From a virus (Duplodnaviria > Heunggongvirae > Uroviricota > Caudoviricetes): 64,000 bases of DNA. The position numbers and the translations under genes are program-made. This document shows, piece after piece, positions 3,313-33,441 of this stretch (position 1 is its first letter; each line of letters begins with the position of its first letter). The DNA lies in IMG/VR virus record IMGVR_UViG_3300031133_000383, positions 250,635 to 314,634 of that record. One strand, 5' to 3'. The notes beneath the pieces were generated by a model. It was not told where the DNA came from and made no database searches. It saw nothing but the letters and a program-made list of their open reading frames with translations.

Positions 3313-3313
3313 A

Positions 3314-6012: not shown

Positions 6013-6840
6013 ATGGGCGGAATGGTTTCAATTTTAGCAAGATTTAGCGATAATATAAAAATTTCATTCAGAATATCAACAGGTTGCATTAATTCTTTTC
6101 ATGATTTAGATTTACTCGATGAGAATAAATTTAAAGCTCATATAGAAAAAGAACACTATTACATAAATGAAGAAGTCACTGATGAGCATCATCAAGATTA
6201 TTATAATGCACGCTGTTTCTTTGCTCCCACTGACTATGGTCTTTTATTTTTCGACTTCAAAGAAAAATATGTGTGGTCTAGTAATAATTACAATGCATTT
6301 TTCTTGTTAAGTACTTGGTTGATTAAGTCTCAATATTCATACCTCGCTGATATTCTATCACTTAGTAACGAAACAAAAGAAACCTTGACTGTATCCGAAT
6401 GTGCTTTTGTAAATGGTCAAATTTTGACTACAAAAGAATATCATTTTCTTGCAGAGTACTCTGAACATTTCAGTTCCTTGTTCTACATTCAACAAGTCAT
6501 CGATAGAAAAGGCACGTTTAAATATAAAAAAAATATGCTACCCAGCACATTGAATGATCTCTATTCAGTATTGGCTTACATTACAGGGGAAGACTTACTG
6601 ACAGAGGCATCATTGAAAAAAGGTCCACAAAGATTGCAATTTATGACCCTCACTATGGATATGTATGATATGGAAGCTATTATTCCTGACTGGTCTTTTC
6701 ATAATTTGGATGGTTGTTATAACGCCATACAATCTGTTTTTGATTATGTTCAACAGCACAATATTTTGAGTGAACGAGATGCACATTACTGGCATGTTTA
6801 TTTAGCTGCAAAAAAAGATTTCGAAAATCAAGAAAACTAA
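6013..6840 (+). CDS. Hypothetical protein, paralog of 881..1669
   Basis: Starts MGG; FAPTDYGLLFFDFKEK aligns with RPVDYGIVVVDFIQK. Confidence 0.7.
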   Translation: MGGMVSILARFSDNIKISFRISTGCINSFHDLDLLDENKFKAHIEKEHYYINEEVTDEHHQDYYNARCFFAPTDYGLLFFDFKEKYVWSSNNYNAFFLLSTWLIKSQYSYLADILSLSNETKETLTVSECAFVNGQILTTKEYHFLAEYSEHFSSLFYIQQVIDRKGTFKYKKNMLPSTLNDLYSVLAYITGEDLLTEASLKKGPQRLQFMTLTMDMYDMEAIIPDWSFHNLDGCYNAIQSVFDYVQQHNILSERDAHYWHVYLAAKKDFENQEN

Positions 6841-6849
6841 CTCTATTTG

Positions 6850-6878
6850 TTGAAAAAACAGTCTACATGTGATATAAT
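6850..6878 (+). promoter_or_regulatory. sigma70 promoter
   Basis: TTGAAA-17 nt-TATAAT upstream of 6900. Confidence 0.7.
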
Positions 6879-6899
6879 CCAGTAAAATATGGAATAATC

Positions 6900-7682
6900 A
6901 TGAAAACTATCAATCTACAAAATCTTATCAATGATATCTTTACTTCTCGTTATCCGAAGAGTAATTTTACACTTGATGAGGTTAATGATGTTTTTCTTTT
7001 CAAATCTTTTTTTGATAAAGACAAACAATTTGTTGACTTTACTATCAAAAATAAATCAATCACCAACATTAAAACAAACAACAAATACCTTCCAGAAGTT
7101 AAAAAACTTTTATCTATCAATAAAATGAAACGCAGTGACTTTAAAATTGTGACTGATTTTTTCAACCTTATAAGTTCAAATTCTAATTTCAACAAGATGT
7201 TTTATATTGAGAATAAATTATCCAATGATGATATGTTTTCATTCAAAAAAGAAGGTTCCTTATTTCGTTTACCTTTGGTATATCCTAGTAGTAAACAATC
7301 TTTTTTTATTACTAAAATGTCAAAAAGTTATTTTCGTTATTATTTTGAAAATAATTTTAAGATTACAAGAGATGGCAATATACTAATGGTTCCTACTATT
7401 ACTCTATTTGAACATCAAAAAAACCAACATAAATTTGCTTTCAATATTTACAATCAAACCATTTACCGTGTGCGTAAAGAATGCGTTTATTTCGAAGATT
7501 TTTTCGAAAATAACGAAGTTTTTAATGCTGCATATCATGGTGATGTCTTTGTTGATGAATACATTGATAATTATATTATCAATAGCTTTGAAGACGATGA
7601 CGATATTAAACAGCTACTGATTAGACTTCCAAGAGAACATTTATATGAAAAGGTTGAATTGCTTTCAATGTATATGATATAA
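6900..7682 (+). CDS. Hypothetical protein with shared C-terminal motif
   Basis: 260 aa; ends LLSMYMI. Confidence 0.65.
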   Translation: MKTINLQNLINDIFTSRYPKSNFTLDEVNDVFLFKSFFDKDKQFVDFTIKNKSITNIKTNNKYLPEVKKLLSINKMKRSDFKIVTDFFNLISSNSNFNKMFYIENKLSNDDMFSFKKEGSLFRLPLVYPSSKQSFFITKMSKSYFRYYFENNFKITRDGNILMVPTITLFEHQKNQHKFAFNIYNQTIYRVRKECVYFEDFFENNEVFNAAYHGDVFVDEYIDNYIINSFEDDDDIKQLLIRLPREHLYEKVELLSMYMI

Positions 7683-7709
7683 CACTGTATACTCGCTTTT
7701 GTCAGAGTA

Positions 7710-8414
7710 TTATATAACCAACATTTTCACTATTATGCCATGTGTTTCTTCATCATATTCATCTAGACTATTGACTTGAAGATGATCTTTTAAGGTGGTT
7801 TCTGTTATAAAATGATATAAATAGCTTTTTTTAACTTCATTGTATATTTGCTCAGCAATTGAAGTATCGTCATCTATTTCAATTCTACCTTCTATATCAT
7901 TGTTTTCTGATGAAAATAAGGCCCATAATTTTTTTTCTGCATAAGATGCTTTTAATTGAATAAAAAATGGTTGGCCATTCATTTTTTTTGCTGTGTATGT
8001 ACTGAGTATCACTAAATCGTTGTCTGTTAAAATAAAAAAACTTTTTGATTCTTGTAGTCTATAAACAATATATTCATTCCATATGTCTAATTTTCGAATA
8101 TCTCTGCCTTTTTCAATAAGTTGACGAACTTTTCTTCTGAATATGTCTTCATTATTAATGATTTCAGGTTGTTCTGATACTAACCATTGAATATCGGAAG
8201 GTACGTTATCATATTTAACAACTACTTCTCTCTTGTTTTGAACAATATAATAAAATTTATTTTGATAAATGATATTTTGTTTAGCAATGAATTCACCAAG
8301 AATAATTGTCTTATATGAAGGGAATTCGGCATAAATATTAATGGATTTCAAATATGAAATAATGCCAGAGTATTTTTCATTTGCATTTTTAAAAATATTT
8401 TTAAACTTTATCAT
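7710..8414 (-). CDS. Hypothetical protein with shared C-terminal motif
   Basis: 234 aa; SD GAGGGA; ends IVKMLVI. Confidence 0.65.
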   Translation of the reverse strand: MIKFKNIFKNANEKYSGIISYLKSINIYAEFPSYKTIILGEFIAKQNIIYQNKFYYIVQNKREVVVKYDNVPSDIQWLVSEQPEIINNEDIFRRKVRQLIEKGRDIRKLDIWNEYIVYRLQESKSFFILTDNDLVILSTYTAKKMNGQPFFIQLKASYAEKKLWALFSSENNDIEGRIEIDDDTSIAEQIYNEVKKSYLYHFITETTLKDHLQVNSLDEYDEETHGIIVKMLVI

Positions 8415-8541
8415 TGGTCCCTCTCTATCATATATAATATTTCATTGTTGATTATTTTCAAGTTTGCAATTTTTTTATTGACCAATGATCCACACTTTTG
8501 AAATCAATTAGAAATGGTAAGTACACTTAAAATAATCAGAT

Positions 8542-8575
8542 ACAGCTTGAATAATTTTATTCAAGCTGTTATAAT
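8542..8575 (+). promoter_or_regulatory. sigma70 promoter P1 overlapped by 28-bp palindrome (putative operator)
   Basis: TTGAAT 8547-8552, 17 nt, TATAAT 8570-8575 with TGn extension; ACAGCTTGAATAA-TT-TTATTCAAGCTGT inverted repeat. Confidence 0.75.
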
Positions 8576-8607
8576 AGGTATTATATTATTACTTAGGAAA
8601 AACACCA

Positions 8608-8661
8608 ATGAAAACTACACTAATGACAACATCCTATTATTATTCATACTATTCTCATTAA
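8608..8661 (+). CDS. Putative attenuator leader peptide MKTTLMTTSYYYSYYSH
   Basis: SD AGGA 8595-8598; 8 of last 9 sense codons Ser/Tyr; followed by alternative hairpins and terminator; below ORF-track size cut-off. Confidence 0.7.
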   Translation: MKTTLMTTSYYYSYYSH

Positions 8662-8720
8662 CCGATCTGAGAGTAGGGGTCGGTTACGGCCTCTAGTTCT
8701 TGGGATAGTTTGTTAATCTC

Positions 8721-8755
8721 AAAACCCTTTGGAGGCCACTTCTAAGGGTTTTTTT
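8721..8755 (+). terminator. Rho-independent terminator (putative attenuator terminator)
   Basis: AAAACCCTT(T)GGAG-GCCAC-TTCTAAGGG followed by T7; 5' arm also complementary to 8688-8696 and 8675-8680. Confidence 0.75.
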
Positions 8756-8845
8756 ATGTCTTTATTTGACAGGTCTTCGTTCGACCTTAAATAACATAAG
8801 TTGTTGATTTAAAAGAAAAATATTTAAAATATTTTAAAATAAATG

Positions 8846-8874
8846 TTGACAATGTAAAAAAGACTTGGTAGAAT
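8846..8874 (+). promoter_or_regulatory. sigma70 promoter P2 for tRNA cluster
   Basis: TTGACA-17 nt-TAGAAT with AT-rich upstream tract. Confidence 0.85.
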
Positions 8875-8923
8875 GTACAACATGAAGAGTTAGGAAATAA
8901 ATAAAAACTAACTTAAAGAGTAT

Positions 8924-9011
8924 GGAAGATTGGCAGAGTGGTCTATTGCAGCAGTTTCGAAAACTGCAGGGTGTCAAAGCTCCGTGAGTTCGAATCTCAC
9001 ATCTTCCTCCA
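8924..9011 (+). tRNA. tRNA-Ser(CGA)
   Basis: Acceptor GGAAGAT/ATCTTCC, anticodon arm GCAGT-TTCGAAA-ACTGC, long variable arm, TTCGAAT T-loop, encoded CCA. Confidence 0.92.
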
Positions 9012-9025
9012 AGTTAAAGTTATAT

Positions 9026-9116
9026 GGTGTGTTGGTAGAGTGGTTGAATACGTCTCCCTGCTAAGGAGATAGGTCTGAAAATGGCCTCGTGAGTTCGAAT
9101 CTCACACACACCTCCA
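9026..9116 (+). tRNA. tRNA-Ser(GCT)
   Basis: Acceptor GGTGTGT/ACACACC, TCTCC-CTGCTAA-GGAGA, long variable arm, CCA. Confidence 0.92.
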
Positions 9117-9138
9117 AATTAAGTTGTAAATGTATTAT

Positions 9139-9222
9139 GGTTAGTTGGCAGAGTGGACGATTGCGGGGGACTGTAAATCCCTTCCGAAAGGCACGGTGGT
9201 TCGAATCCATCACTAACCACCA
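9139..9222 (+). tRNA. tRNA-Tyr(GTA)
   Basis: Acceptor GGTTAGT/ACTAACC, GGGGA-CTGTAAA-TCCCT, A73, CCA. Confidence 0.92.
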
Positions 9223-9245
9223 AATTTAGATGTAATGGTTTTAAT

Positions 9246-9329
9246 GGAGAGATGGCCGAGCGGTTGATGGCACCAGACTGTAAATCTGGCTCGAAAGACA
9301 CACTGGTTCAAATCCAGTTCTCTCTACCA
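9246..9329 (+). tRNA. tRNA-Tyr(GTA)
   Basis: Acceptor GGAGAGA/TCTCTCT (G1-U72), CCAGA-CTGTAAA-TCTGG, A73, CCA. Confidence 0.9.
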
Positions 9330-9433
9330 AATTAGACGTATGGTAATAAGAATTGACGCTTCTTGCAGAAGTTGTCAGGTTTAATGTAATTATTGTTATG
9401 TTATGATAATGGTTGACATCTACCCACCAATAT

Positions 9434-9521
9434 GGAAGCGTGGCCGAGTGGTTTAAGGCAACAGTCTTGAAAACTGTCGGGTGTAACAGCCCCGTGAGTT
9501 CGAATCTCACCGCTTCCGCCA
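9434..9521 (+). tRNA. tRNA-Ser(TGA)
   Basis: Acceptor GGAAGCG/CGCTTCC, ACAGT-CTTGAAA-ACTGT, G73, CCA. Confidence 0.93.
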
Positions 9522-9545
9522 AATTTAGATGTATAGCAATAAAAT

Positions 9546-9634
9546 GGACGCCTTTCCTGTCAGCGGTCTGTAAAACCGCCGCCTTAATAAGACAGGTCGG
9601 TTGGCGTGAGGTTCGAATCCTTGGGCGTCCACCA
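9546..9634 (+). tRNA. Non-canonical tRNA-Tyr(GTA)-like RNA lacking a D-arm
   Basis: Acceptor GGACGCC/GGCGTCC, GCGGT-CTGTAAA-ACCGC, T-arm with TTCGAAT, ACCA end; only 10 nt between acceptor and anticodon stems. Confidence 0.75.
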
Positions 9635-9702
9635 AATTTAGATTTATGGGAAGTATGTGCCATCATTATACTATAATTTTGGTAACTGCTGCCCACCAAT
9701 AT

Positions 9703-9790
9703 GGAAGCGTGGCCGAGTGGGTTAAGGCACTAGTCTAGAAAACTAGCGGGTGTAACAGCCCCGTGAGTTCGAATCTCACCGCTTCCGCCA
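9703..9790 (+). tRNA. tRNA-Ser(AGA)
   Basis: Near-identical copy of 9434..9521 with anticodon arm CTAGT-CTAGAAA-ACTAG. Confidence 0.88.
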
Positions 9791-9795
9791 AATAT

Positions 9796-9844
9796 GGGGT
9801 TTTTAACTGTTCATTCATTTCTTGATCAAATCTGATCATTTTGC
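9796..9844 (+). mobile_element. Orphan IS607-like left-end remnant
   Basis: GGGTTTTTA.CTG-N12-TTGATCAAATCTGATCATTT matches reverse complement of the IS607 end at 61332-61376 (20-nt exact block, same spacing). Confidence 0.65.
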
Positions 9845-9912
9845 TAATTACTATCTTATTGTAGATATGGATGGTATCTTAAAAAAAGTTTAATGTAAGA
9901 GTTCTCTCTATT

Positions 9913-10050
9913 ATGTCTACAGAACGCAGTGCAGTTTTGGTAATTGGTTGGCCGCGTGGTGATGCTGAAAGTCTGACTACACAGCTTAGTCCTATTGCTG
10001 AACATTACAACGTTGAACATGATGGTGATGATTTACATAACGACAGTTAA
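9913..10050 (+). pseudogene. Truncated (45 aa) paralog of 14229..14630
   Basis: MSTERSAVLVIGW...PIAEHYNVEHDGDDL aligns with MSTERNAMLVIGW...PIAEHFDIEHDSDNL, then stops. Confidence 0.65.
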
Positions 10051-10215
10051 TGCAAAAAGATTGCTTGAATGCCTAATTTTTCTTTCATTTTCTCAATCTC
10101 TTGATTCTTGAAATTTTTAAAATTTAAAAAATGGATGAAATAATTTAGCAAAATGACTCTTTTCTTTATAGTTCAAGTGTTTTAAACATAATAAACTAAT
10201 ATTATTTTTATTATT

Positions 10216-11118
10216 TCAAATTTTTACCATTTCTAATAAGGTAAAGTAGCGTTCTAGTTCTTCGTTGGAAATATTATCCAATTCTGTTTTCTTTAAGTTT
10301 AATGATGAACACATAACAGTTTTAAGTACAATATTAAATCTACGAGAAAAATAAGTCTCTATTTGTTCATTGTCCATATTTAAGGTGTGTAAATTAAACA
10401 GTCCTTGTTTAAGCTTCTTTTCATCGTCTGTAAAATAAAGTTTGGGCTTTTCTGTCTCAGTTGTATTTATAGGAACAATACAACACATCTTAGTTTCATT
10501 GCCAAAAGGTAATTTGATTTTGAAGAATGGCTGTATGGTATTACCGACTACAATATGAATCCAGTCAACGGTAATATAAGATTTCTTAAAATTAGATTGT
10601 TGATATCCTCTGCCTTTTTGAAGCATTCGATTAAAACTCAAAAGAGACGCTTTCTTACCTTTAAATCTCAAATGTTGGCTAAAATTATCGATGCCGAAAA
10701 AGTCTTGAATAGAGCCTTCTGTCCAGAGTTCATCAGCAGAATGAATCATTTTAGATTCAACACCTGTTTTGATAAAAGAGTCTATAATCATAAAGATTTT
10801 ATCAAGATCAAGTTTGTAGGTGGCTTCAAAATAATTAGCAATAGTTCTGCTTTTTGTTGATAGGATAGATCCCATACTGCTGCCATTGGCTTTAAAGGTT
10901 ATGTCTGGATAATGATTTTTTTGATGATTTAATCCAGTTGGGAAGGTAATGTCCATTCTCCATTTATGATCATCTGTAATCGCTGTATACACAAACTCCC
11001 CTGAGCTTCCATAAACCATTTCTTTATTATCTTCATAGAAATTAGTAAACTTCATCAGGGATGAGAGTGTTTTTACAAAATGATTAGCTTCATTGTGGTT
11101 TGAGAATTTTTTGAACAT
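10216..11118 (-). CDS. Family A paralog 1 (unknown function)
   Basis: KSY.V...PF/YFKI.LP motif; SD GGAG supports second Met; ends LLEMVKI. Confidence 0.75.
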   Translation of the reverse strand: MFKKFSNHNEANHFVKTLSSLMKFTNFYEDNKEMVYGSSGEFVYTAITDDHKWRMDITFPTGLNHQKNHYPDITFKANGSSMGSILSTKSRTIANYFEATYKLDLDKIFMIIDSFIKTGVESKMIHSADELWTEGSIQDFFGIDNFSQHLRFKGKKASLLSFNRMLQKGRGYQQSNFKKSYITVDWIHIVVGNTIQPFFKIKLPFGNETKMCCIVPINTTETEKPKLYFTDDEKKLKQGLFNLHTLNMDNEQIETYFSRRFNIVLKTVMCSSLNLKKTELDNISNEELERYFTLLEMVKI

Positions 11119-11174
11119 TCCGATCTCCAAAATATTCTCAATTATAGCATATAGTATAAAAAAATGGTAGTATT

Positions 11175-12068
11175 TTAAATTTTGATCATTTCAATCAATT
11201 CAAAATAACTCTTTAAATCTTCAGCCGTTGCATCTTTTATATCTGACTTGCTGATATTTAATGTCTTTACAATCAGCATTTTAATTTCATTTTGAAATTC
11301 AACAGCAAAATATGATTCTAGTTTTTCGGAATCCATACTGTGTGACTTCATTTGATCAACGGGCTTTTTTCTAAGACCATCGTCATTGTTCAAAAAATAA
11401 ACTTTGGCTTCTCCCGATAAGGGTATTACACAAGTTGTTTTCTTTTTGTCATTATAAGGTAATCGAATTTTGAAATAGGGATGTACAGAACTATCAGAGT
11501 GTACCAAAAAATCTAGACTCACACTCATGTAGGATTGCTTGTAATGATCACGTTTATAGCCAGAAGCTTTTTGAAGCAGTCTATTAAATTTGATAGTGCA
11601 AAAATTATTATCACAAATCATTACCTGCCCCCTATAATGATTTATATTAATATGCGATTTCATATGGGTTTTATACTTTCTGCCTATAGCTGAATTGAAT
11701 AATCCAGACTTAATGCCTTGATCAGTAAATATTTTAAGTACGTTTATCATTCTATCAAAATCAGGTCTATAATGTAATTGCATAAAATCTGCCAATTCTT
11801 TTTTCTTTTTTTGTCTGTCTTGTGGATTTTTTTTATTACTTAAATCTCGTTCTTTTATAAAAATAATACTTGGATAGTAACTCTTTTGAGGTTTTTCATC
11901 AGTAAAAGAAATAACAATATTCCATTTATCAGGGGTTCTTGCGATATATTGAAAAGTTGTTTTTTTATCTTGGTGCATTTCTGTATTGAATTCTGTACAG
12001 TTGAAGTGACCAGAAAATATTTTAAGTAAATTATTTGCTTCAAGATGGTTTGGGTGTTCTTTAAACAT
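11175..12068 (-). CDS. Family A paralog 2
   Basis: KQSYMSV..HPYFKIRLPY; ends LIEMIKI. Confidence 0.75.
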   Translation of the reverse strand: MFKEHPNHLEANNLLKIFSGHFNCTEFNTEMHQDKKTTFQYIARTPDKWNIVISFTDEKPQKSYYPSIIFIKERDLSNKKNPQDRQKKKKELADFMQLHYRPDFDRMINVLKIFTDQGIKSGLFNSAIGRKYKTHMKSHININHYRGQVMICDNNFCTIKFNRLLQKASGYKRDHYKQSYMSVSLDFLVHSDSSVHPYFKIRLPYNDKKKTTCVIPLSGEAKVYFLNNDDGLRKKPVDQMKSHSMDSEKLESYFAVEFQNEIKMLIVKTLNISKSDIKDATAEDLKSYFELIEMIKI

Positions 12069-12213
12069 AGTGGTCTCCAAAAAAAATAGTTTTTTATTAT
12101 AACATAAAATTCAAAAAGGCCAATAATTATTTGCCATATTTAAGAAATTACTATTAATAGTAGATTATATCGTCAAAATACTATAAGCTATTAAAAGAGC
12201 ATAGAGAGGTTGA

Positions 12214-13122
12214 GTGATGTATCAAATTAAAACTGTTGATAGAAATAAAAAAGGCCGAGATTTTATTGTAGGCGATATTCATGGAATGTATGATCACTTG
12301 TTAAAACTGCTAGATTCAGTAAATTTTGATAAAAATATTGATCGGCTGTTTTCTGTTGGTGATCTTATAGACCGTGGACCAAAATCATTGGAAGTTATTT
12401 TATTAAACAAACAGCCTTGGTTTTTTTCAATATTGGGCAATCACGAAACGATGTTGCTTACAGGCCATCTAGCCTACTCAAAAGATTGGTTCAAGCATTT
12501 ATCCAAGAAAGATAAAAAAAATTGCTTAGACATTATAAAAAAATTACCTATTGCCATAGAGATAGATACCTCTATTGGTAAAATTGGCTTGGTTCATGCT
12601 CAAGTTCCTTTACAGTTCAATGACTGGAATATATTTAAACAATATTTGAAAGAAGCCAATCTATCCTATGATATGAGTTCAAAGAAAGATTCTGATAGAG
12701 TCATTCGAGAGGCTTTATGGGGCAGAAAAAGAATTTATATGGAATTGAAAAAAAATGGTACAAGCTCTGCTCGGAAAGCCTACATGAAATTTGTAAAAGA
12801 TGGATTATGGAATCGTACGACCTTATACAGAATCATTACAACACGTAAAACATTGCCCTACATCAAGCATGGAATATCTTTTTCATTTAGATATATCAAA
12901 GAAAAATTCAAACAAAAAGTCCAACATAGAAGTTATATTGACAATATCAAATATACTGTACATGGGCATACGCCAGTCAAAATGCCTTTGTTGCTGGGTA
13001 ATCAATTTTTTATCGATACAGGTGCTGTTTATGGTATCAAGCAAAATAAAAAAGGCTACTTGACCCTTATAGAAATTTGTAATGACATGAAAATACATCA
13101 GTTGCTAATTGATCATGGTTGA
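12214..13122 (+). CDS. PPP-family metallophosphoesterase (PphA / lambda phosphatase-like)
   Basis: GDIHG, VGDLIDRG, GNHE, HGHTP, IDTG motifs. Confidence 0.88.
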   Translation: MMYQIKTVDRNKKGRDFIVGDIHGMYDHLLKLLDSVNFDKNIDRLFSVGDLIDRGPKSLEVILLNKQPWFFSILGNHETMLLTGHLAYSKDWFKHLSKKDKKNCLDIIKKLPIAIEIDTSIGKIGLVHAQVPLQFNDWNIFKQYLKEANLSYDMSSKKDSDRVIREALWGRKRIYMELKKNGTSSARKAYMKFVKDGLWNRTTLYRIITTRKTLPYIKHGISFSFRYIKEKFKQKVQHRSYIDNIKYTVHGHTPVKMPLLLGNQFFIDTGAVYGIKQNKKGYLTLIEICNDMKIHQLLIDHG

Positions 13123-13267
13123 CTATTGTATTTAAATTTATGGATTTCTTATAAGAATATGCTATTATAAGTATATAAGGACTATAATATGATCAATATT
13201 AATGAGATGAGAATCACTACAACCAACATTTTAAATTTATTGTTATTTATTATTGTAGTCAAATATT

Positions 13268-13621
13268 ATGAATAATATTCAACAACTTCAACATATTGTC
13301 TCTTTTATTTGTAAATGCATATTGGTTACGTGTTGTGTGTTATTTTTCGTAGCCATATCAGTTATGGGTTTAATTTATTTTGATGCAATAACGCCTCAAA
13401 TATTAAAAATCTCTGATAAGTTATTTATATCTTTGTATATAAAATTAAAATGTGCCACATGGGTCGTTTTTTGTATTGGAGTTCTTTTCCTAATGGTTGA
13501 TGATACTAAAAGTCGAGAGCATACCAAGACGCTTATTATGATTACTGTCTTTGTGACCATTATTGTCTGGATGTTGATGGCCGTCATATTGTTTCAACCC
13601 ATTCCAGAAGAAATAGTCTAA
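13268..13621 (+). CDS. Small membrane protein
   Basis: Three hydrophobic segments. Confidence 0.55.
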   Translation: MNNIQQLQHIVSFICKCILVTCCVLFFVAISVMGLIYFDAITPQILKISDKLFISLYIKLKCATWVVFCIGVLFLMVDDTKSREHTKTLIMITVFVTIIVWMLMAVILFQPIPEEIV

Positions 13622-13622
13622 T

Positions 13623-14093
13623 TTACCGTTCATATGGGCCAAAATTATGTGGTTTTTCTTGTATACTTTTCTGAGTATTTAAAAGCCTCTCTTCATACAA
13701 ATTTTTAAAACGTTCATCTAGTTTAATATTAGATTCTTTACCAGAAATAGTATGAAAAACTGCCAGATCTACCTGACTGTTATTGTTAATATCATCAGGA
13801 TGAGCATAGTTGAAAGGAGGCGTTATTTTCATAGTCACACCAATTTCTTTTAGTGCATCACCAATTTCATGAAAGTTTAAAAGAGCCATGACTGTAACAA
13901 ATTTAGTTTCACCCTTTTCCAGAATATCCAGAATTCTCCGGGCTGAAATTGGATTGCAACTGACTCCCATTAATATATCAAGAAACTTCTTATAATCTGA
14001 TGGAACTCCTTGAAAAGATAATCCAACTCCCATCAATTCATCATAATTCCAGTCATCTTGATAGTAATCACCAAACTTTAATTTTCTTTTCAT
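13623..14093 (-). CDS. Hypothetical protein
   Basis: ORF with SD AGGT before ATG 14093. Confidence 0.6.
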   Translation of the reverse strand: MKRKLKFGDYYQDDWNYDELMGVGLSFQGVPSDYKKFLDILMGVSCNPISARRILDILEKGETKFVTVMALLNFHEIGDALKEIGVTMKITPPFNYAHPDDINNNSQVDLAVFHTISGKESNIKLDERFKNLYEERLLNTQKSIQEKPHNFGPYER

Positions 14094-14228
14094 AAGCACC
14101 TATTTTATAATAATTCAGGAATATTGTATAATACAGTATAGAGCATACTTATGTCAATTATTATAAAATTATTGTGAGATTTTATATATCATGCTATAAT
14201 AGCATTCTATTTTCTAGGAGCTTATCAT

Positions 14229-14630
14229 ATGTCTACAGAACGCAATGCCATGTTGGTTATTGGTTGGGAAACTTCAAATTCATTTAGTTTAACCACTCTA
14301 TTAAAGCCTATTGCTGAACACTTTGATATTGAACATGACAGTGATAATCTGCCCGCCATACTAAGTGATGAATATAGTTCGACATTCATGAAGCATATGC
14401 CTAAGCATCTTAGAACGTTTTGTTCGGATCGTGAAATTGAAATTGTTTATGGTTCAAATGGGTATGAATCAGGGGCCTATTATTTTGGTATGGGTGTGCC
14501 ATATATCAGTGACATTCCAGTGCATGAATTTTTAAAGTTAATTGAAGAACTGAATCAGGTTATGGCTAAATCTGTTGATGGTATCGATGTTACACCAGCG
14601 ACTGTACAAAACGTTATCAGTTGGTTTTGA
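14229..14630 (+). CDS. Hypothetical protein
   Basis: SD AGGAG, TGCTATAAT promoter upstream, terminator 14648-14671 downstream. Confidence 0.7.
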   Translation: MSTERNAMLVIGWETSNSFSLTTLLKPIAEHFDIEHDSDNLPAILSDEYSSTFMKHMPKHLRTFCSDREIEIVYGSNGYESGAYYFGMGVPYISDIPVHEFLKLIEELNQVMAKSVDGIDVTPATVQNVISWF

Positions 14631-14680
14631 AATACAAATCATCTATAAAAGCTCCTTTTCAGGAGCTTTTTAATTTTTGA

Positions 14681-15805
14681 TTAATCATATTCATGGTTGA
14701 CGACGCTGTTTAATAAGGGAACGTCAGTGGCCATAGAGTCCGAAAAATAGGTGTTTATTCTAAAGCCTTTGTTTGTATCAAATACAAGGAATTCACTTTC
14801 ATCATTAAAATGTTCCATGTAATAATTAGCTGATTTAGGGTAAGTCATTCCTTTTAGTTCAAAAGGGAAAGAGTAATAGCTGTAAGGGTTGCCTATTTCT
14901 TTCATCAAATCAAAATAAGTATCATAATTATTCATTTCATATTCTACGTTTCCTGATTCAATATTTGCACAGTTCCATATTTTTATTTGTGATGTTTCAC
15001 AATCTATAATGTAGGCAAAAATAGTGTTTTGTGATTTTTGTACAATCATATGATATTTTTTGTTGTTCACATAATAGGCATCGTTATCTGAATCATTGAA
15101 TTCAAATTTGTTATTTTCTGTATAACTTCCTTTTTTTAGTTTTATTGTCCATTCCAGAAAGAACTTTGAAAGTTCAGAATCAAAGCCACTGCTTTGTTTT
15201 GCAAATTTTGTTTCACAAAATTTTTCGATAGCTTTTTTTTCATCATCATTAAATAATGATTTCAATTTATCAAAAACAATCAGTGCTTGGTCGGAGATAT
15301 AAGCACTGACTGTTTGATTGGTTCTAGATGCAATAATATTATTATAGAACTCCTTAGAATCTCTGTTGTATCCTTTATAAAACTGTTTTACAGCATATTC
15401 TTCACTAATCTGGTCCAGATCCTTTTTGAAACTTTCAACATTTTTTGATACCTTTTGATTCAGAATCTCCTTCATTTCAACGTGTTCATCCTCTTTGTAA
15501 TGGGCCAGATAGATAGAGTTTATTTGTGTATCAATCCGTAATTCATAGCGTTCATTTGCTAGATTAAATTCTATTTTGCTTTCGTTATTGTTATTTTGCA
15601 TATTTTGTTTTATCTTTTCAATAAGATTATCCTGTTCTTCGGAAGTATACTTTCGGAACTCTTCCATTGTACAACCAAGATCAAACTTATTGTTTGCTTC
15701 TGACTTATCAATAACTTGAATAAACTGTTCAACTTCTTGGGAAAACAATATCTTTGATAGCTTAAATATAATGTCTTGCGTTGTTACTGCTGATTGTAAT
15801 TGCAT
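14681..15805 (-). CDS. Hypothetical protein
   Basis: 374 aa acidic ORF, SD AAGGA. Confidence 0.65.
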   Translation of the reverse strand: MQLQSAVTTQDIIFKLSKILFSQEVEQFIQVIDKSEANNKFDLGCTMEEFRKYTSEEQDNLIEKIKQNMQNNNNESKIEFNLANERYELRIDTQINSIYLAHYKEDEHVEMKEILNQKVSKNVESFKKDLDQISEEYAVKQFYKGYNRDSKEFYNNIIASRTNQTVSAYISDQALIVFDKLKSLFNDDEKKAIEKFCETKFAKQSSGFDSELSKFFLEWTIKLKKGSYTENNKFEFNDSDNDAYYVNNKKYHMIVQKSQNTIFAYIIDCETSQIKIWNCANIESGNVEYEMNNYDTYFDLMKEIGNPYSYYSFPFELKGMTYPKSANYYMEHFNDESEFLVFDTNKGFRINTYFSDSMATDVPLLNSVVNHEYD

Positions 15806-24389: not shown

Positions 24390-24418
24390 TTGACTTTATT
24401 GGATATTTATTCTATCAT
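24390..24418 (+). promoter_or_regulatory. sigma70 promoter of gatCAB
   Basis: TTGACT-17 nt-TATCAT, SD AAGGA before 24445. Confidence 0.7.
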
Positions 24419-24444
24419 ATATCCTTCAAATAAAGGAAAATAAC

Positions 24445-24723
24445 ATGACTTCGATAGACTTAAAGAAACTGGAATCACTCAGTTGTCTCAAAATTGATGA
24501 ATCTCAAGAACATAAAATGCTAGCAGGTATTCAAGGTGTGGTTGAAATGCTACATGCTATCGATCAAGTCAATGTTAACTCTTTTTCTGATAATCAAACT
24601 AATCCTACTCAACTCGCCACTGATGTTGTTGATGACACTTATCTTTTTGATAAAAATAAAACCAGTCAATCAGTTAACATGCAGGATGGCCTATTTTTGG
24701 CACCAAAAGTCATTAGCAAGTAA
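24445..24723 (+). CDS. gatC: Asp/Glu-tRNA amidotransferase subunit C
   Basis: 92 aa, L..LS.L pattern, C-terminal DGLFLAPKVI; first gene of gatCAB. Confidence 0.8.
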   Translation: MTSIDLKKLESLSCLKIDESQEHKMLAGIQGVVEMLHAIDQVNVNSFSDNQTNPTQLATDVVDDTYLFDKNKTSQSVNMQDGLFLAPKVISK

Positions 24724-24750
24724 ATTTATACATTATAATTGAGGTGGATT

Positions 24751-26181
24751 ATGTCATTACGTACCAAACAAAGCGAATTTAAAGCAACACAACACTATTG
24801 GACAAAAAGAACTGCAGCTATTAAAGAGTTGATAAAAAAAGATCAATCAGGTGCTTTCTGGCACCAGTCAGAAGTCTTTTCTCGTATGGAACAGGATTCT
24901 GATATTAAAGACCAACAAGATAAATCAATGAGTGAACCACTTTCAGGGATTGCAGTAGGAATAAAAGATCTTTTTTGTGTAAAAGGATTAACAACAACGG
25001 CTGGCTCCAAAATTCTTGAAGACTTTGTTTCTCCCTATGATTCTACCGTATGGGAAACGCTTCAATCCAAGGGAGCATTCATTGGTGGAAAGCTTGCCAT
25101 GGATGAATTTGCAATGGGATCATTTACCAATACTTCATTCCTAGGTAAAACATCTATTCCCGGTCAACTGGACCGATCAGCAGGTGGTTCATCAGGTGGC
25201 TCTGCTGCGGCTGTTGCATCGGGTATTGTGGATTTTAGTATTGGTTCGGATACAGGTGGATCTGTTCGCCAACCTGCTAGTTTTTGTGGCGTTGTTGGAT
25301 TTAAACCTTCTTATGGAGCCTTTTCACGTTTTGGAATGATTCCTTATGCTTCATCATTGGATCAAGCTGGTTTCTTGACCAAGAGTCTTGATGATTTATC
25401 ATTTTTGATCGAACAAAACTTGGCCAAGAAAGATTCAAGAGACATGACATGTGTAGGTTTGGGAGATTATCATAAAAGTTCAAAAACTATTATGAGTGTA
25501 GGCTACTTTAAAGATATTTTAGAAAGTAACGCTATTCAGCCAGAAGTTGCAGAAGCCTATCGCCTCACTTTACAGCAGTTCAAAGAAGCCGGTATAAAAT
25601 TGGTGCCTGTAAAACTAGATTTTATGGAACAAGCGGCTCAAATCTACTATATTATTGCCTGTTCTGAGGCCAGTTCTAACCTTGCTCGCTATCAAGGCAT
25701 CTACTTTGGCAAAAAGCTTACTGAGCAACCACTCCACGATTCATTTGCTGAAACAGTGGCTCATTACCGTAGTAAATTCTTTGGAGAAGAGGTACAACGT
25801 CGCATTATGTTGGGTTCCTTTATCCTCAGTGCTGAAAATTTTTCAACCATGTATGAAAAATCGTGGAACATGAGAAAGGCTTTAACAGCCAGTATTCAAA
25901 AAACACTAAAAGAAGTGGACACTATTGTTTTACCTGTTAGTCCTACAGTGGCTCCGAAATGGGAAGAAATAGATACAATGACACCCGCCCAAATCTATTA
26001 TTCAGATTATATGACAGTGCCTTTTAGTCTTGCAGGTGTTCCAGCTATTTCATTACCTTGGCATAAAACATCTGATGGCTTGAACATTGGCATGCAATTT
26101 GTTGGACAGAAGTTTAAGGATTATGAGTTGATTGACAGCTTGTCGGCTTTGGAAACTGAAATTTACGGAAAAGGATTATGA
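24751..26181 (+). CDS. gatA: Asp/Glu-tRNA amidotransferase subunit A
   Basis: Amidase signature GIKDLF, GGSSGGSAAAVA, GSDTGGSVRQPA; ASSNLARY; EVQRRIMLG; SD GAGGTGG supports ATG 24751. Confidence 0.93.
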   Translation: MSLRTKQSEFKATQHYWTKRTAAIKELIKKDQSGAFWHQSEVFSRMEQDSDIKDQQDKSMSEPLSGIAVGIKDLFCVKGLTTTAGSKILEDFVSPYDSTVWETLQSKGAFIGGKLAMDEFAMGSFTNTSFLGKTSIPGQLDRSAGGSSGGSAAAVASGIVDFSIGSDTGGSVRQPASFCGVVGFKPSYGAFSRFGMIPYASSLDQAGFLTKSLDDLSFLIEQNLAKKDSRDMTCVGLGDYHKSSKTIMSVGYFKDILESNAIQPEVAEAYRLTLQQFKEAGIKLVPVKLDFMEQAAQIYYIIACSEASSNLARYQGIYFGKKLTEQPLHDSFAETVAHYRSKFFGEEVQRRIMLGSFILSAENFSTMYEKSWNMRKALTASIQKTLKEVDTIVLPVSPTVAPKWEEIDTMTPAQIYYSDYMTVPFSLAGVPAISLPWHKTSDGLNIGMQFVGQKFKDYELIDSLSALETEIYGKGL

Positions 26182-27578
26182 ATATGAGCGATTATAAAAT
26201 TACAATTGGTTTGGAAGTTCATGTGGCCCTCAAAACCACATCAAAGTTATTTAGTCGCAGTGCTTGTGATTTTGAACTAAATAAATTCTCGTATTTTGAT
26301 GCTGGTATTCCGGGTATGCTTCCAGTTCTTGCTCAGGAACCCGTAGATATGGCATTGAAATTTGCAGTCAGTGTGGGTGCTGAAATTCCTGCTATCAGTA
26401 TTTTTGAACGCAAACATTATTTTTATCCTGATTTGTCATTGGGTTATCAAATCACTCAGCAACATCGCCCTATCATGATTGGCGGCACTGTGCCTATCGA
26501 AATTGATGGAAAGACCATCAATGTTCAAATCGAACATGCACACTTGGAATGTGATGCCGCAAAAAGCCTGCATGATCGCTATACAGATTATACCGCCATT
26601 GACCTTTCTCGTGGATCTTCACCTCTTCTTGAAATTGTGACGACCCCTTGTATGCACAGTACAAAGGAAGCTAAACTATATGCACAAACAGTGTGTGAAC
26701 TGGTTAAATATCTTGGAATTTGTGATGGCAAGCTAGAAGAAGGGTCATTTCGTGTAGATGCAAGTATTTCTTTATCAAAAACAGAGCAATTAGGAACTCG
26801 GGTAGAAATAAAAAATATTTCATCATTTGGCTTCTTGCAAGCTGCTTTGGATTACGAAATTGAACGTCAAACAGAAATACTGGATGCTGGTTTGAAACTT
26901 GACATGGAGACTCGTCTGTTTGATGAGTCCACATCAACCACTCATTCCATGCGAATGAAAGAAACTGTGCATGAGTATCGTTATATGCCTGATCCCGACA
27001 TTGTACCTTTGGTTTTGGATCAAGAAAAACTACAAGCTATTCGTGGAGATAACGAACTCTATTATTTTGAAATTCGTCAACAATTTATTGATATGTTTGA
27101 CAGGCTCTCTATCAAAATTGATAGTATTCCTTCATTGTTAGCATCAGATTATAAATCGGTTTGGATGAAATTACTAAGGAATCCTGATTTGCAGACAGAG
27201 CGGTTTATTAGGTTGTTGGCATTCTGGTTGCCAGAAGTGTTTGCTCGCATTGACTCAAAAAGAATTGTTGACTTTGACGATTTGAAATTTATTGCAGATA
27301 GTTCTTTAGAAGCAAAAGAAGTTAAGGAAATGCTAACACGGTGGGCAACAACTGACTTAACACTTAAAGCTTGTATTCCTGAGCGTATGTCCGAGGCTGA
27401 ACTTGGCACTATAATTCTTGATACCTTTAAAGAACTGGCTCCACAAGTAGAACAATACAAATCTGGACAGGAGAAAATTTTACAATTTATTATTGGTAAA
27501 GTAATGGCCAAAACAAAAGGCAAAGCACCCGCCAGTTTTGTAAAAGAGAAAACAAGTGAACTTATAAAGACCATTTAA
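26178..27578 (+). CDS. gatB: Asp/Glu-tRNA amidotransferase subunit B
   Basis: IGLEVH, RKHYFYPDL, PLLEIVT, EEGSFRVDA, VEIKN, YRYMPDPD, Yqey-like tail. Confidence 0.93.
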   Translation: MNMSDYKITIGLEVHVALKTTSKLFSRSACDFELNKFSYFDAGIPGMLPVLAQEPVDMALKFAVSVGAEIPAISIFERKHYFYPDLSLGYQITQQHRPIMIGGTVPIEIDGKTINVQIEHAHLECDAAKSLHDRYTDYTAIDLSRGSSPLLEIVTTPCMHSTKEAKLYAQTVCELVKYLGICDGKLEEGSFRVDASISLSKTEQLGTRVEIKNISSFGFLQAALDYEIERQTEILDAGLKLDMETRLFDESTSTTHSMRMKETVHEYRYMPDPDIVPLVLDQEKLQAIRGDNELYYFEIRQQFIDMFDRLSIKIDSIPSLLASDYKSVWMKLLRNPDLQTERFIRLLAFWLPEVFARIDSKRIVDFDDLKFIADSSLEAKEVKEMLTRWATTDLTLKACIPERMSEAELGTIILDTFKELAPQVEQYKSGQEKILQFIIGKVMAKTKGKAPASFVKEKTSELIKTI

Positions 27579-27703
27579 TATGGTCTTTTATTTTCGAATT
27601 TGTCATTTTTGCTTAAATAGCAATTGTCTTTTTCATTTTTACGCAATTGTTCTTTTCAATTATCATGCTAATATATGGAATACAAACTAATTGGAGATAA
27701 ATT

Positions 27704-27925
27704 ATGAAAAAAACAACATTTGCACTATTATCAATAATCGCACTTACCTCAACCACAGTATTTGCAGAAGATGGTTCTGACCGCACATTATTGGGTCAAC
27801 AAATCAGACATTCATATCAAGATCAAAATAAAACATATGCAATAGAGAATGGTAGTGATTACTCTAAAGCTGACCAGTCAAGAGTTAATACTTCTGATGT
27901 TACAACACCTGATGTAATGCAATAA
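27704..27925 (+). CDS. Small secreted protein (PtrA-like N-terminus)
   Basis: Signal peptide followed by AEDGSDRT, resembling Pseudomonas PtrA-type peptides. Confidence 0.45.
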   Translation: MKKTTFALLSIIALTSTTVFAEDGSDRTLLGQQIRHSYQDQNKTYAIENGSDYSKADQSRVNTSDVTTPDVMQ

Positions 27926-28033
27926 ATTCAATCGTTAATAAACATAACAAAGTCATCTTGCGATGGCTTTTTTTGTTGTATTTGTATTGTTTTTTTGGTA
28001 AAATAACAGAAATCTTTTAGAGGTACAACCATT

Positions 28034-28784: not shown

Positions 28785-29615
28785 ATGTTGTGGATTGTGC
28801 AAGGAAATCTTAAAAAAGATGTCGGTATGGAATATTTGATAAAAGTGCTTCAGGAAGAAGGCTATGACCATCGTTTGGTAAGAACTATTCATTTTTCAAA
28901 TATCATTGTAGATGTTGATTTAGATATTAATCAATATCAAGAAGATAGTATTCCTCATGTTAGTATTGAAAACAATCAAAATATGGTAACGATGGGGTCC
29001 TATTCTCTTGCATTAAATGCAAAAGAGCAAGGATGGACTCCGGGTTCATTTATTAATGATAATTTTGAATTTTCAAAATGGCTTCAAGGTTGGGGTGCTT
29101 CCAATTTGCTGAATGGTGATGCTATTGAAGATACTGTTTCCAACATTATTCATAAAGTTCCAGAACATTTTATCAAGCTTTTTTCAAGACCATCCGAAGA
29201 TACAAAATCATTTGCAGGTCAATTGTTTGAACGGGAAAATTTTATTTATTGGCTTAAAAAAATTGAAAAAGGTCAAGATCGTTTTGGATTAAATGGTGAT
29301 ACCAATATCATTATTTCATCTGCTAAAAACATCCTAGCAGAGTATCGATTGTTTATTGTAGATGGGGTTGTGATTACGGGTAGTATGTACAAAGTAAGGG
29401 ATCAAGTTATTGCTTCTGAACATATTGATTCTGGTGTGCTGGATTTTGCCAATAAAATGCTGTCTATTTGGCAACCTGATAGAGCCTTTGTTCTCGATAT
29501 CGCTGTTACTGATGATGGAGAACGTGTTATTGAGGTCAACAATATTAACTCTGCCGGTTTTTACAAATCCGATATTTCCAAGATAGTAAAGTCTATAGAC
29601 TCAATGAAATTCTAA
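28785..29615 (+). CDS. ATP-grasp domain protein (DUF4343-like)
   Basis: F.RP...KSF.G, EYRLFIVDG, FVLDIA, VIEVNNINSAGFY. Confidence 0.75.
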   Translation: MLWIVQGNLKKDVGMEYLIKVLQEEGYDHRLVRTIHFSNIIVDVDLDINQYQEDSIPHVSIENNQNMVTMGSYSLALNAKEQGWTPGSFINDNFEFSKWLQGWGASNLLNGDAIEDTVSNIIHKVPEHFIKLFSRPSEDTKSFAGQLFERENFIYWLKKIEKGQDRFGLNGDTNIIISSAKNILAEYRLFIVDGVVITGSMYKVRDQVIASEHIDSGVLDFANKMLSIWQPDRAFVLDIAVTDDGERVIEVNNINSAGFYKSDISKIVKSIDSMKF

Positions 29616-32232: not shown

Positions 32233-33441
32233 ATGACTATTAAAATTCCTCTCACTATTTCTCGCGGTTATGTTAGTAATTGGGGTATCTGGGAAGCTGC
32301 ACGCGAAATCAAACAAAATGCTCTTGATACCAAAGATTATGAAGTTCGTTATGAAGATAATCGTATGATCATTGAAACTCGGGCTGGCGTGCTTGATCGC
32401 AAAAATCTATTGTTGGGTATCTCCAGCAAGCGTGATGATAAAGAATCTATCGGGACATATGGGGAAGGCTTCAAGCTTGCTCTCTTGGTTCTGCTTCGTG
32501 AAGGAAAAGAAGTAGTGATTAAAAATGGTGCTGATACATGGACACCTTGTTTTGAGATGCACCCTAGTGTACATGATGAATGCCTAACTATCTTGATAGA
32601 AGAAAATGTGGTTGAAGACAATGAAAACAAGGTTGTCTTTATCATTGATGGATTGACACCAGAAGAAATTGAAGAGATTCAAGAAAAAACGTTACATAAT
32701 TTTGATAAAAATAGTGTTTTGGCAAGTTACAAACAATCCTTTTGCTGGCCTATCGAGTCAGGACTTGGCAAGCTGTATGTAGGTGGTCTTTTTGTCTGCG
32801 AGCTTGGTAATAACTACAAACTCAACTACAATTTTTCACCTGACATCTTGGAACTTGATCGGGATCGTCAAAGCGTATGCACTTTCTCTTTGTCGATTGC
32901 GGCTACAAAAATGATAGCATTGTCAGGAAACTATGATTTGTTGGCAGAATTGGCTGATATGCAGGCTGAGGATGTTTCCGATTACTATAATGTTGAAAGC
33001 ACTCGTTATTATAGTGATGACTATACTTCAAATGGCGATGTAAGTAGTAAGATTAAAGATGTTGTCACAGAAAACTTCATCAATAGTCATGGAATCAAAG
33101 CATATCCCATTAATGCAAGCCTAGATGAAAAACAAAAAAGAGTTCAGACTGTAAAAGCAGTAGATGCTGGCTTGGTTCCTGTTGTTGTTAAAGCCGGTTA
33201 TTACAATATGCTGCATGAAAAAGTTCGAAAGCAAAAGGTATCTGATTTTAAATCATTTAATTTAAGCGTTGAATTGATTAAATTTTATGAAGAAAACAAA
33301 GGTCAACTGCGAGGAAAGCCAAAACGTGCTTTGGAAAAACTCTTGGAAACTGTACGTCTTTATGAAGGAAAAATTGAGCTTCCTGATACAATCAAGGAAA
33401 AAGTAGTTGATGATTCTATCGATGCCGATATTTTTTTCTAA
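32233..33441 (+). CDS. GHKL-type (HATPase) ATP-binding protein
   Basis: REIKQNALD N-box; LLGISSKRDD..IGTYGEGFKLALL G-boxes; promoter TTGACC-17-TATACT at 32176-32204. Confidence 0.75.
   Translation: MTIKIPLTISRGYVSNWGIWEAAREIKQNALDTKDYEVRYEDNRMIIETRAGVLDRKNLLLGISSKRDDKESIGTYGEGFKLALLVLLREGKEVVIKNGADTWTPCFEMHPSVHDECLTILIEENVVEDNENKVVFIIDGLTPEEIEEIQEKTLHNFDKNSVLASYKQSFCWPIESGLGKLYVGGLFVCELGNNYKLNYNFSPDILELDRDRQSVCTFSLSIAATKMIALSGNYDLLAELADMQAEDVSDYYNVESTRYYSDDYTSNGDVSSKIKDVVTENFINSHGIKAYPINASLDEKQKRVQTVKAVDAGLVPVVVKAGYYNMLHEKVRKQKVSDFKSFNLSVELIKFYEENKGQLRGKPKRALEKLLETVRLYEGKIELPDTIKEKVVDDSIDADIFF

Follow-up and report, generated by a model that had tools for sequence, protein, structure and literature searches.

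A complete bacterial-type gatC-gatA-gatB operon on a giant, possibly non-cellular replicon

We analyzed a 64,000-nucleotide stretch of DNA (the window), which comprises bases 250635 to 314634 of a single 437,043-bp IMG/VR "virus" record (IMGVR_UViG_3300031133_000383), and focused on an operon that encodes the three subunits of the tRNA-dependent amidotransferase GatCAB. Window positions 24390 to 27596 form one transcription unit, consisting of a sigma-70-like promoter, gatC, gatA, gatB, and an intrinsic terminator. gatC (24445 to 24723, plus strand; TIGR00135) encodes a 92-aa small subunit of the type that wraps the GatA-GatB interface, gatA (24751 to 26181, plus strand; Pfam Amidase, TIGR00132) a 476-aa glutaminase subunit of the amidase-signature family, and gatB (26178 to 27578, plus strand; GatB_N, GatB_Yqey, NF004012, TIGR00133) a 466-aa kinase/transamidase and tRNA-binding subunit. 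An initial annotation, made by reading the sequence, had described a complete operon in the bacterial gene order, and the open reading frame (ORF) listing and family searches agreed, returning three consecutive plus-strand genes. The gatA ATG is preceded by GAGGTGG, with an in-frame TTG upstream at 24739 also reported by the ORF listing, and the gatB start overlaps the gatA stop in an ATGA.

The promoter, TTGACT-17-TATCAT (24390 to 24418, plus strand), was present exactly where the initial annotation had placed it, with 10 of 12 consensus matches and 26 nt between it and the gatC ATG. Promoter-like sites were not enriched in the region (12 found vs 15.1 expected), so the hexamer pair is weak evidence by itself, and the assignment, which depends on its position, is only suggestive. 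At the other end, an intrinsic-terminator-like hairpin (27566 to 27596, plus strand) with a 9-bp stem, a 5-nt loop, and a following T-rich run overlaps the gatB stop codon; terminator-like sites were enriched in the region (6 found vs 2.5 expected). A leader-peptide attenuator upstream of gatC was considered and rejected, as the 5′ untranslated region of only ~26 nt leaves no room for one.

Family searches identified each of the three products. GatB matched GatB_N (E = 1e-93) and, over residues 369 to 460, GatB_Yqey (E = 3e-13), and it exceeded the equivalog cut-offs of both NF004012 (382.5 vs 338 bits) and TIGR00133 (359.5 vs 314.8 bits). GatA matched Pfam Amidase (E = 2e-120) and scored 471.2 bits against the TIGR00132 cut-off of 481.1. 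GatC matched TIGR00135 over residues 2 to 90 of its 92 (E = 3e-7; 30.7 bits against a cut-off of 47.1) and had no Pfam match at 1e-3. Aquifex GatA (3h0l_A) aligned with the window's GatA end to end (E = 2.5e-93), and Aquifex GatB (3h0l_B) aligned over residues 5 to 465 of the window's GatB (E = 2.6e-75).

These alignments bore out the claim that the catalytic motifs of both large subunits are intact. In GatA, the Lys/cis-Ser/Ser triad is retained as K72 (GIKD), S147/S148 (GGSSGGS), and S171 (GSDTGGS), and these residues were invariant in five members of the clade to which the operon belongs. The ATP and Mg ligands of GatB lie in the motifs GLExH, HLE, LLEIV, and KNxS, corresponding to E34, H36, E156, E186, N230, and S232 of the yeast protein (PMC4027206). 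The window's GatB has their equivalents in E13 and H15 (GLEVH), E124 (HLE), E152 (LLEIV), and N213 and S215 (KNIS), which include the His/Glu metal ligands named by the initial annotation. In a 16-sequence alignment spanning cellular GatBs, E13, H15, E124, E152, and N213 were invariant, while the S215 column was not. The parts that contact tRNA are also retained: K185-L186-E187 aligned without deletion, by alignment only, to K183-M184-E185 of the Staphylococcus aureus 3-10 turn, which in bacterial GatB discriminates U1-A72 from G1-C72 (PMC2811023), and a Lys-rich tail motif for binding the tRNA D-loop and variable loop, GKVMAKTKGKA, is found at residues 440 to 450.

The C-terminal FLAPKVI(S)K of GatC was conserved in five relatives, and a model of the GatC-GatA complex reached an ipSAE of 0.91, compared with 0.01 for the best of three controls. 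Three runs agreed in at least 92% of contacts, with a partner pLDDT of at least 73. Among solved complexes, 58 of 80 attained the mark used for these models, as did 2 of 110 mismatched pairs. The model supports binding of GatC to GatA, with the qualification that the pass may partly reflect memory, since solved GatCAB complexes exist. The operon is real and complete, and its product is very probably functional.

The initial annotation had also pointed to altered segments in GatB, reading HLECDAAKS and DLSRGSSPL where other forms are usual. Both segments are present as quoted, and what changes is their interpretation. HLECDAAKS occurred in 114 of the 117 closest full-length GatB homologues, which span 51 to 100% identity, and DLSRGSSPL and close variants were likewise common among them. 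In a set of 80 named bacterial GatBs, HxE was followed by E, A, T, S, D, or Q. Because the Glu-to-Cys change is clade-wide and its position varies in ordinary bacterial GatBs, it does not appear to be damage; we read it as a fixed clade signature at a tolerant position, neither a lost ligand nor a sign of unusual chemistry.

The members of this clade share more than a protein. In the relatives, a common gene order runs from a ~700-aa minus-strand ORF through gatC, gatA, gatB, and small orphans to an R2K ATP-grasp gene. At least nine independent contigs, drawn from metagenomes in ENA, JGI, Logan, and NCBI, have the same arrangement (our loci L082 to L084, L110 to L111, and L114 to L117). The contigs bearing these syntenic loci range from 0.3 to 1.9 Mb. 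The longest contigs for GatBs ~75% identical to the window's were 1,917,244, 1,851,360, and 1,843,594 bp; at 68% identity the longest was 1,042,066 bp, at 64% it was 662,595 bp, at 55% it was 598,106 bp, and at 53% it was 1,358,036 bp. The JGI contigs with the locus include Ga0370506_000001 of 3300034157 (1,917,244 bp) and Ga0310127_000002 of 3300034072 (1,042,066 bp). GatB is present once in the 1.9-Mb contig, and a concatemer artefact was rejected as an explanation of its length.

Comparison with the syntenic relatives L082 and L083/L084 showed that gatCAB is under strong purifying selection, which lends indirect support to transamidation activity, and is among the best-kept genes of its neighborhood. 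The three proteins were 66 to 80% identical to their counterparts, with dN/dS of 0.07 to 0.17 at a dS saturated near 2 (gatC, 0.13 to 0.17; gatA, 0.08 to 0.11; gatB, 0.07 to 0.09), whereas four flanking orphan ORFs in the same relatives had identities of 24 to 45% and dN/dS of 0.17 to 0.46. The exception among the neighbors is the R2K-clade ATP-grasp gene (28785 to 29615, plus strand; Pfam R2K_3, E = 1.6e-20, and R2K_2; phrog_7313, E = 1.2e-63), which is as conserved as gatCAB (68 to 74% identity to the relatives; dN/dS 0.10 to 0.14). In all of the relatives examined (L082, L083, L110, L114, and L115), it is found 1.2 to 3.7 kb downstream of gatB, and it may have a functional connection with tRNA amidation. 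This gene also qualifies the initial description of the operon's flanks as hypothetical genes, which otherwise stood, as the other flanking ORFs had no Pfam match.

We placed the clade by a maximum-likelihood GatB tree of 24 of its members and 80 named bacterial GatBs. The clade formed a monophyletic group whose stem is 1.79 substitutions per site long, and it adjoined the Saccharibacteria/Patescibacteria (SH-aLRT 95), a grouping that may be long-branch attraction. Cellular GatBs were sampled from GTDB (the best 80 loci), from 5 selected genomes, and from 401 Pseudomonadota genomes drawn evenly, one of which (G388) is unpublished and supports none of our conclusions. A scan of GTDB contigs for the motif RKHYFYPD gave top matches of 37 to 39% among the best 80 loci, which are a sample, and over all of the sampled cellular GatBs full-length identity ranged from about 33 to 41%. 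Because the best of them was only ~41% identical, gatB does not appear to be a recent capture from the sampled host lineages. Taken with the shared gene order, the divergence suggests that gatCAB is a long-standing, vertically inherited core gene of a giant, AT-rich (~31% GC), orphan-dominated replicon lineage.

These data also bear on whether the operon is simply host DNA, introduced by assembly chimerism or by a very recent horizontal capture and having no stable role in the element. GC content rises to 35 to 36% across window positions 24 to 28 kb from 28 to 30% on both sides, as might be expected of foreign DNA, and in deposited "phage" records most GatB matches do look like contaminating host DNA or the flanks of prophages. 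Elevated GC is nevertheless expected where an AT-rich genome carries an enzyme gene under constraint. The gene order and its orphan neighbors recur in at least nine independent contigs at 66 to 80% identity, no cellular GatB exceeded ~41% among the best 80 GTDB loci or the 401 Pseudomonadota genomes, and the clade has a long private stem. The synteny largely refutes a chimera or recent capture, and we regard an origin of this kind as very improbable.

Full-length GatB was found in 14 of 50,697 deposited phage records, always at 36% identity or less. Most of these 14 records are multi-contig, unannotated, or matched at the record's end, which suggests that most GatB matches in deposited phage records are host DNA. 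A scan of the 2.9 million IMG/VR contigs for the near-universal motif RKHYFYP returned one other GatB locus, in a provirus-type record of 26 kb and beginning 690 bases from its end. We found neither a paper on phage GatCAB in the literature nor a deposited phage genome whose GatCAB is both genuine and complete. Full-length GatB is otherwise nearly absent from the phage collections, in line with the statement of the initial annotation that phages more commonly carry only Yqey-like pieces.

To consider what the enzyme might act on, we turned to the translation genes of the 437-kb record. It contains 26 tRNA genes, all of which encode CCA. The tRNA-Asn(GUU) has U1-A72 and G73, and U1-A72, an identity element for bacterial GatCAB (PMC2811023), occurs in three of the 26: this tRNA-Asn, a tRNA-Lys, and an amber-suppressor tRNA(CUA). 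No tRNA-Gln, tRNA-Glu, or tRNA-Asp was among them. The translation-support set combines tRNAs for A/T-rich codons with several synthetases, and the predicted proteome is coded by AT-rich DNA and is rich in Asn, Lys, and Ile; Asn accounts for 7.0% of predicted residues (8861 codons) and Gln for 3.5%. The fragment had no match to PF00749 (GluRS/GlnRS) or PF00152 (AspRS/AsnRS/LysRS). The initial annotation had proposed that the element supplies its own indirect aminoacylation route, and this was not sustained as a whole: GatCAB and a tRNA-Asn(GUU) with the appropriate first base pair are present, but the record yielded no GluRS/GlnRS, AspRS/AsnRS, tRNA-Gln, tRNA-Glu, or tRNA-Asp. Judged by gene content, the element seems to carry, within the 437-kb record, the second step of the route only. 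With no GluRS or AspRS in the record, misacylation must be provided from another source.

The mechanism of the GatCAB family is established and comprises glutamine hydrolysis by GatA, an ammonia tunnel, and ATP- and Mg-dependent activation and amidation by GatB. The enzyme of the window would be expected to follow it: GatA would hydrolyze glutamine, the ammonia would pass through a tunnel between GatA and GatB, and GatB, with ATP and Mg, would activate Asp or Glu charged on tRNA-Asn or tRNA-Gln and then amidate it, with the U1-A72 pair and the D-loop as the features by which substrates are selected. The necessary non-discriminating AspRS, and perhaps a GluRS, would have to come from the host or from genome sequence outside the sampled part. 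The outcome would be conversion of Asp-tRNA(Asn) to Asn-tRNA(Asn), and possibly of Glu-tRNA(Gln) to Gln-tRNA(Gln), raising the capacity of the second step. We propose that the enzyme may prefer Asn and would act on the replicon's own tRNA-Asn(GUU) as well as on host tRNAs, serving a proteome that is 7% Asn. The initial annotation had also suggested that the operon might bypass host shut-off or toxins targeting this step; for the toxins, a type VI effector reported to be linked to GatCAB (bioRxiv 10.1101/733030) would be a precedent.

Two odd tRNAs, the amber suppressor (CUA; U1-A72, A73) and one whose anticodon has four bases (AGAA), were found at record positions 375947 to 376020 and 389162 to 389237. 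They raise a different role, in which GatCAB would serve recoding or a special tRNA instead of bulk Asn and Gln supply; for example, Glu loaded on the suppressor could be amidated so that TAG would be read as Gln. The suppressor does have the U1-A72 pair that bacterial GatCAB recognizes (PMC2811023), a pair shared by only three of the record's 26 tRNAs. Its A73, on the other hand, and its nearest match, a tRNA-Trp at 72% (in a small local tRNA sample that held no tRNA-Gln), speak against such a role, as does the failure to find a GluRS in the record. The genome also reads well without recoding. The standard bacterial code (code 11) fits, with ORFs of at least 150 aa covering 77% of the record; opening TAG takes this long-ORF coverage only to 80%, and TAG terminates 64 of 568 ORFs. 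We consider recoding improbable and retain bulk supply of Asn-tRNA, and perhaps of Gln-tRNA, as the preferred role. An alternative genetic code for the record as a whole was likewise rejected, as opening TAG or TGA adds only 2 to 5 points of long-ORF coverage and opening TAA brings no meaningful gain either.

What carries the operon is harder to establish than what the operon is. IMG/VR classes the 437-kb record (GC ~31%) as linear, and CheckV estimates its completeness at 98%. A protein 3 kb inside the record's left end has identical copies on ENA contigs of 521,788 and 322,998 bp, and the longest contig in that protein's cluster is 604,313 bp. Bases 1 to 14,927 of the record matched the fetched piece of the 521,788-bp contig (ERZ27247405 k141_914738; our locus L112) at 100%. 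Because this contig extends 199.7 kb upstream past the end of the record, the genome is at least ~637 kb long; the record is a fragment of it, and the CheckV estimate is wrong. The label "virus, 98% complete" is unreliable whichever nature the carrier has. OmpA-like genes lie in L112 just upstream, beyond the record's end.

Within the fragment, orphans dominate: only 32 Pfam families matched among 136 ORFs of 236 to 344 aa. The genes that could be assigned include a kit like that of jumbo phages, with synthetases of the TyrRS type and of class II, a PP-loop enzyme resembling TilS, Thg1, RNA ligases, a polynucleotide kinase, several NAD-dependent DNA ligases, NAD salvage enzymes, HNH genes, TnpB genes, and nine DEDDh-domain paralogues. 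GGAG or GAGG occurs upstream of 45% of ATG starts, compared with 2.9% of random positions, and ribosome binding is therefore of the bacterial type. This frequency, together with operon-style gene overlaps, ruled out a eukaryotic giant virus.

In the initial annotation, the operon was set in a phage-like context. The jumbo-phage-like kit is consistent with that, and so is the lack of any cellular hallmark found: the 437-kb record had no match to 16S rRNA, GTP_EFTU (the EF-Tu/EF-G/IF2-type GTPase), or RNA_pol_Rpb2_6 (RNA polymerase beta), and no ribosomal family was among the top 25 Pfam families listed, either for the ORFs of 236 to 344 aa or for those of at least 300 aa outside the window. The same context is called into question by the absence from the record of any identified terminase, capsid, sheath, portal, or tail gene, by the record being a fragment, and by relatives of 1.0 to 1.9 Mb. 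A check for terminase and capsid genes, intended to confirm a viral contig, was run on the 437-kb fragment and found none, which leaves a bacterial chromosome neither demonstrated nor excluded.

On balance, we read the carrier as a giant phage-like replicon that depends on transcription and translation of the bacterial type, with a non-cellular element (a huge phage or a phage-like extrachromosomal element) somewhat favored over a cell. Our overall reading, that a functional bacterial-type gatC-gatA-gatB operon sits on a likely non-cellular giant replicon and boosts the supply of Asn-tRNA and perhaps Gln-tRNA, we hold with evenly divided confidence. Several observations count against it. Six-frame searches of the record with Terminase_6N, Terminase_6C, the HK97 capsid family (Phage_capsid), and Phage_sheath_1 gave no match, and no structural or packaging annotation was among the PHROG matches listed for 81 ORFs of at least 345 aa (one list giving the best 25 of 35 families). 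The 136 ORFs of 236 to 344 aa had no structural family either, within the 25 top Pfam families listed for them. Envelope-type genes (an HtpX-like M48 peptidase, an SppA-like S49 peptidase, and an OEP outer-membrane efflux protein) and other cell-like genes (two MFS transporters, a cation efflux pump, a chemoreceptor signaling domain, and DnaK) are present. The 1.0- and 1.9-Mb JGI contigs with the same locus did not surface in the IMG/VR motif scan. The synthetases of families PF00749 and PF00152 that would feed the amidation step were missing from the fragment, GatA and GatC fall just below their NCBIfam equivalog cut-offs, and the unsampled part of the genome could carry virion genes or ribosomal genes.

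Much of this would be explained if the record were mislabelled and came from a ~1.9-Mb chromosome of an undescribed, host-dependent, AT-rich bacterium whose proteome is extremely divergent and rich in orphans, with gatCAB as its housekeeping route to Asn-tRNA and Gln-tRNA. The syntenic loci on contigs of 1.04, 1.84, 1.85, and 1.92 Mb would then be chromosomal, as would the additional sequence of at least 199.7 kb past the record's end; the record's lack of identified virion or packaging genes, its envelope and transport genes, and the failure of the large JGI contigs to surface in the IMG/VR scan would all follow. Vertical inheritance of GatCAB as the most conserved gene of its neighborhood, and the presence of signal peptidase I, an Na/H exchanger, and LuxI/LuxR in a distant relative, are also what a bacterium would be expected to show. 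Against a bacterium stands a contiguous 437 kb, with ~570 ORFs, in which no rRNA, EF-Tu/EF-G/IF2-type GTPase, RpoB, GluRS, or AspRS/LysRS/AsnRS was found, in which no ribosomal family was among the top 25 Pfam families listed, and in which only 32 Pfam families appeared among the 136 ORFs. The 26 tRNAs are heavily redundant (six CAU and six Ser) and include the amber suppressor and the 4-base-anticodon tRNA; ligases and DEDDh-domain genes each come in multiple copies; and the kit for tRNA repair and NAD salvage is typical of phages. We know of no bacterial lineage with a gene content of this kind. A mislabelled bacterium is a substantial possibility, though short of an even chance.

A more specific version of the non-cellular replicon would be a lineage of viruses that infect bacteria, or of extrachromosomal elements resembling viruses, with genomes from above 0.6 to ~1.9 Mb and a complete GatCAB kept as a vertically inherited core gene. 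Together with the element's own tRNA-Asn, the enzyme would free Asn-rich protein synthesis from the limits of host amidation. This version is tentative, and we think it rather unlikely to be right in full.

Further genes and features were noted around the operon and its counterparts. Directly after the gatCAB terminator lies an ORF of 73 aa with a signal-peptide-like N-terminus (window positions 27704 to 27925), which has its own promoter-like site (27638 to 27666) and terminator (27949 to 27970). Farther downstream, a 402-aa protein (32233 to 33441) matched phrog_6077 (E = 1e-95) and was 33 to 37% identical to "histidine kinase-like ATPase" or RIIA-like proteins of Vibrio, Klebsiella, Erwinia, and Pectobacterium phages; by its similarity, this protein hints at phage kinship and a Gram-negative host range. 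The window also contains a von Willebrand A domain protein (52373 to 53740, minus strand), a TnpB/IS605 OrfB-like gene (58987 to 60630, minus strand) that is one of three to four in the record, and a protein with HD and AAA_33 kinase-type domains (61957 to 63150, plus strand).

Among the relatives, those with GatB at 68% identity have a PTH2 peptidyl-tRNA hydrolase gene between gatB and the R2K gene. In the 1.04-Mb contig, a Pirin/cupin gene lies between gatA and gatB (L110, 9236 to 9937); it is not found in the close kin L114 to L117. A more distant locus, L108 (53% GatB identity), is on a 294-kb scaffold whose cluster reaches up to 1.36 Mb. Its gatCAB surroundings (noted at 11835 to 13147) include LuxR and LuxI quorum-sensing genes, an ankyrin-repeat gene, signal peptidase I, an Na/H exchanger, and an Aas-like acyltransferase, making this neighborhood more cell-like than the window's. 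A 170-aa orphan lies between gatA and gatB in L108 (9474 to 9986). Patescibacteria keep a membrane HEPN protein at this position; the orphan was rejected as such a protein, having no similarity to it and no RNxxxH motif.

The importance of the operon depends on its carrier. Genes for tRNAs, synthetases, and translation factors are already known from phages and giant viruses. Were the carrier a virus or a mobile element, the indirect route to Asn and Gln would be one more of the translation steps that bacterial parasites have taken over, and the private GatB clade would serve as a marker gene for finding and tracing a family of giant replicons. Should the viral lineage prove true, this would be the first viral tRNA-dependent amino-acid transformation, in genomes far beyond those of any described phage. 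The largest reported phage genomes that we found are of 735 and 841 kb, with ~1.03 Mb given in one preprint (PMC7162821 among the sources). If the carrier is instead a bacterium, the operon is ordinary, and an organism with ~80% orphan genes would still be remarkable.

Among known systems, the gatB and gatA genes of phage-labelled records (Acinetobacter phage MD-2021a, Komagataeibacter phage phiKM1, and Microcystis phage MaAM05) offer little parallel. None falls in the window's clade, their GatBs are at most 36% (full length) and their GatAs at most 44% identical to the window's, and that of MaAM05 is a lone gatA-like amidase. The stand-alone or truncated GatB/YqeY-domain proteins of jumbo phages are alike in being translation accessory genes of very large genomes, near tRNA or synthetase genes. 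They are tRNA-binding tails without a catalytic cradle, GatA, or GatC, whereas the window encodes all three subunits and retains every catalytic motif checked. With the huge phages (PMC7162821), the replicon shares a standard-code genome of hundreds of kb, many tRNAs, several synthetases, tRNA modification and repair genes, and mostly unknown genes. The main text of that paper mentions no amidotransferase, and unlike those phages the present replicon has no terminase or capsid gene that we found, a genome of at least ~637 kb, and relatives of up to 1.9 Mb.

The closest comparison is with the GatCAB of bacteria, as characterized from S. aureus (2DF4, 2F2A, and 3IP4), Aquifex aeolicus (3H0L), and Thermotoga (3AL0). 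The window's GatB is ~33 to 41% identical to the sampled cellular GatBs, on a long private branch and with the HLECDAAKS and DLSRGSSPL variants, and its carrier is a giant replicon, rich in orphans, that yielded no partner non-discriminating AspRS or GluRS. The subunits and their gene order are the same, as are the domains (an amidase-signature GatA; a GatB with cradle, helical, and YqeY-tail domains; and a small GatC), and the glutaminase motifs, Mg/ATP ligands, 3-10 turn, and Lys-rich tail have all been kept (PMC2811023, PMC4027206). The operon thus presents a canonical enzyme in an unprecedented carrier, and its deep, private GatB clade marks a family of giant, AT-rich replicons.

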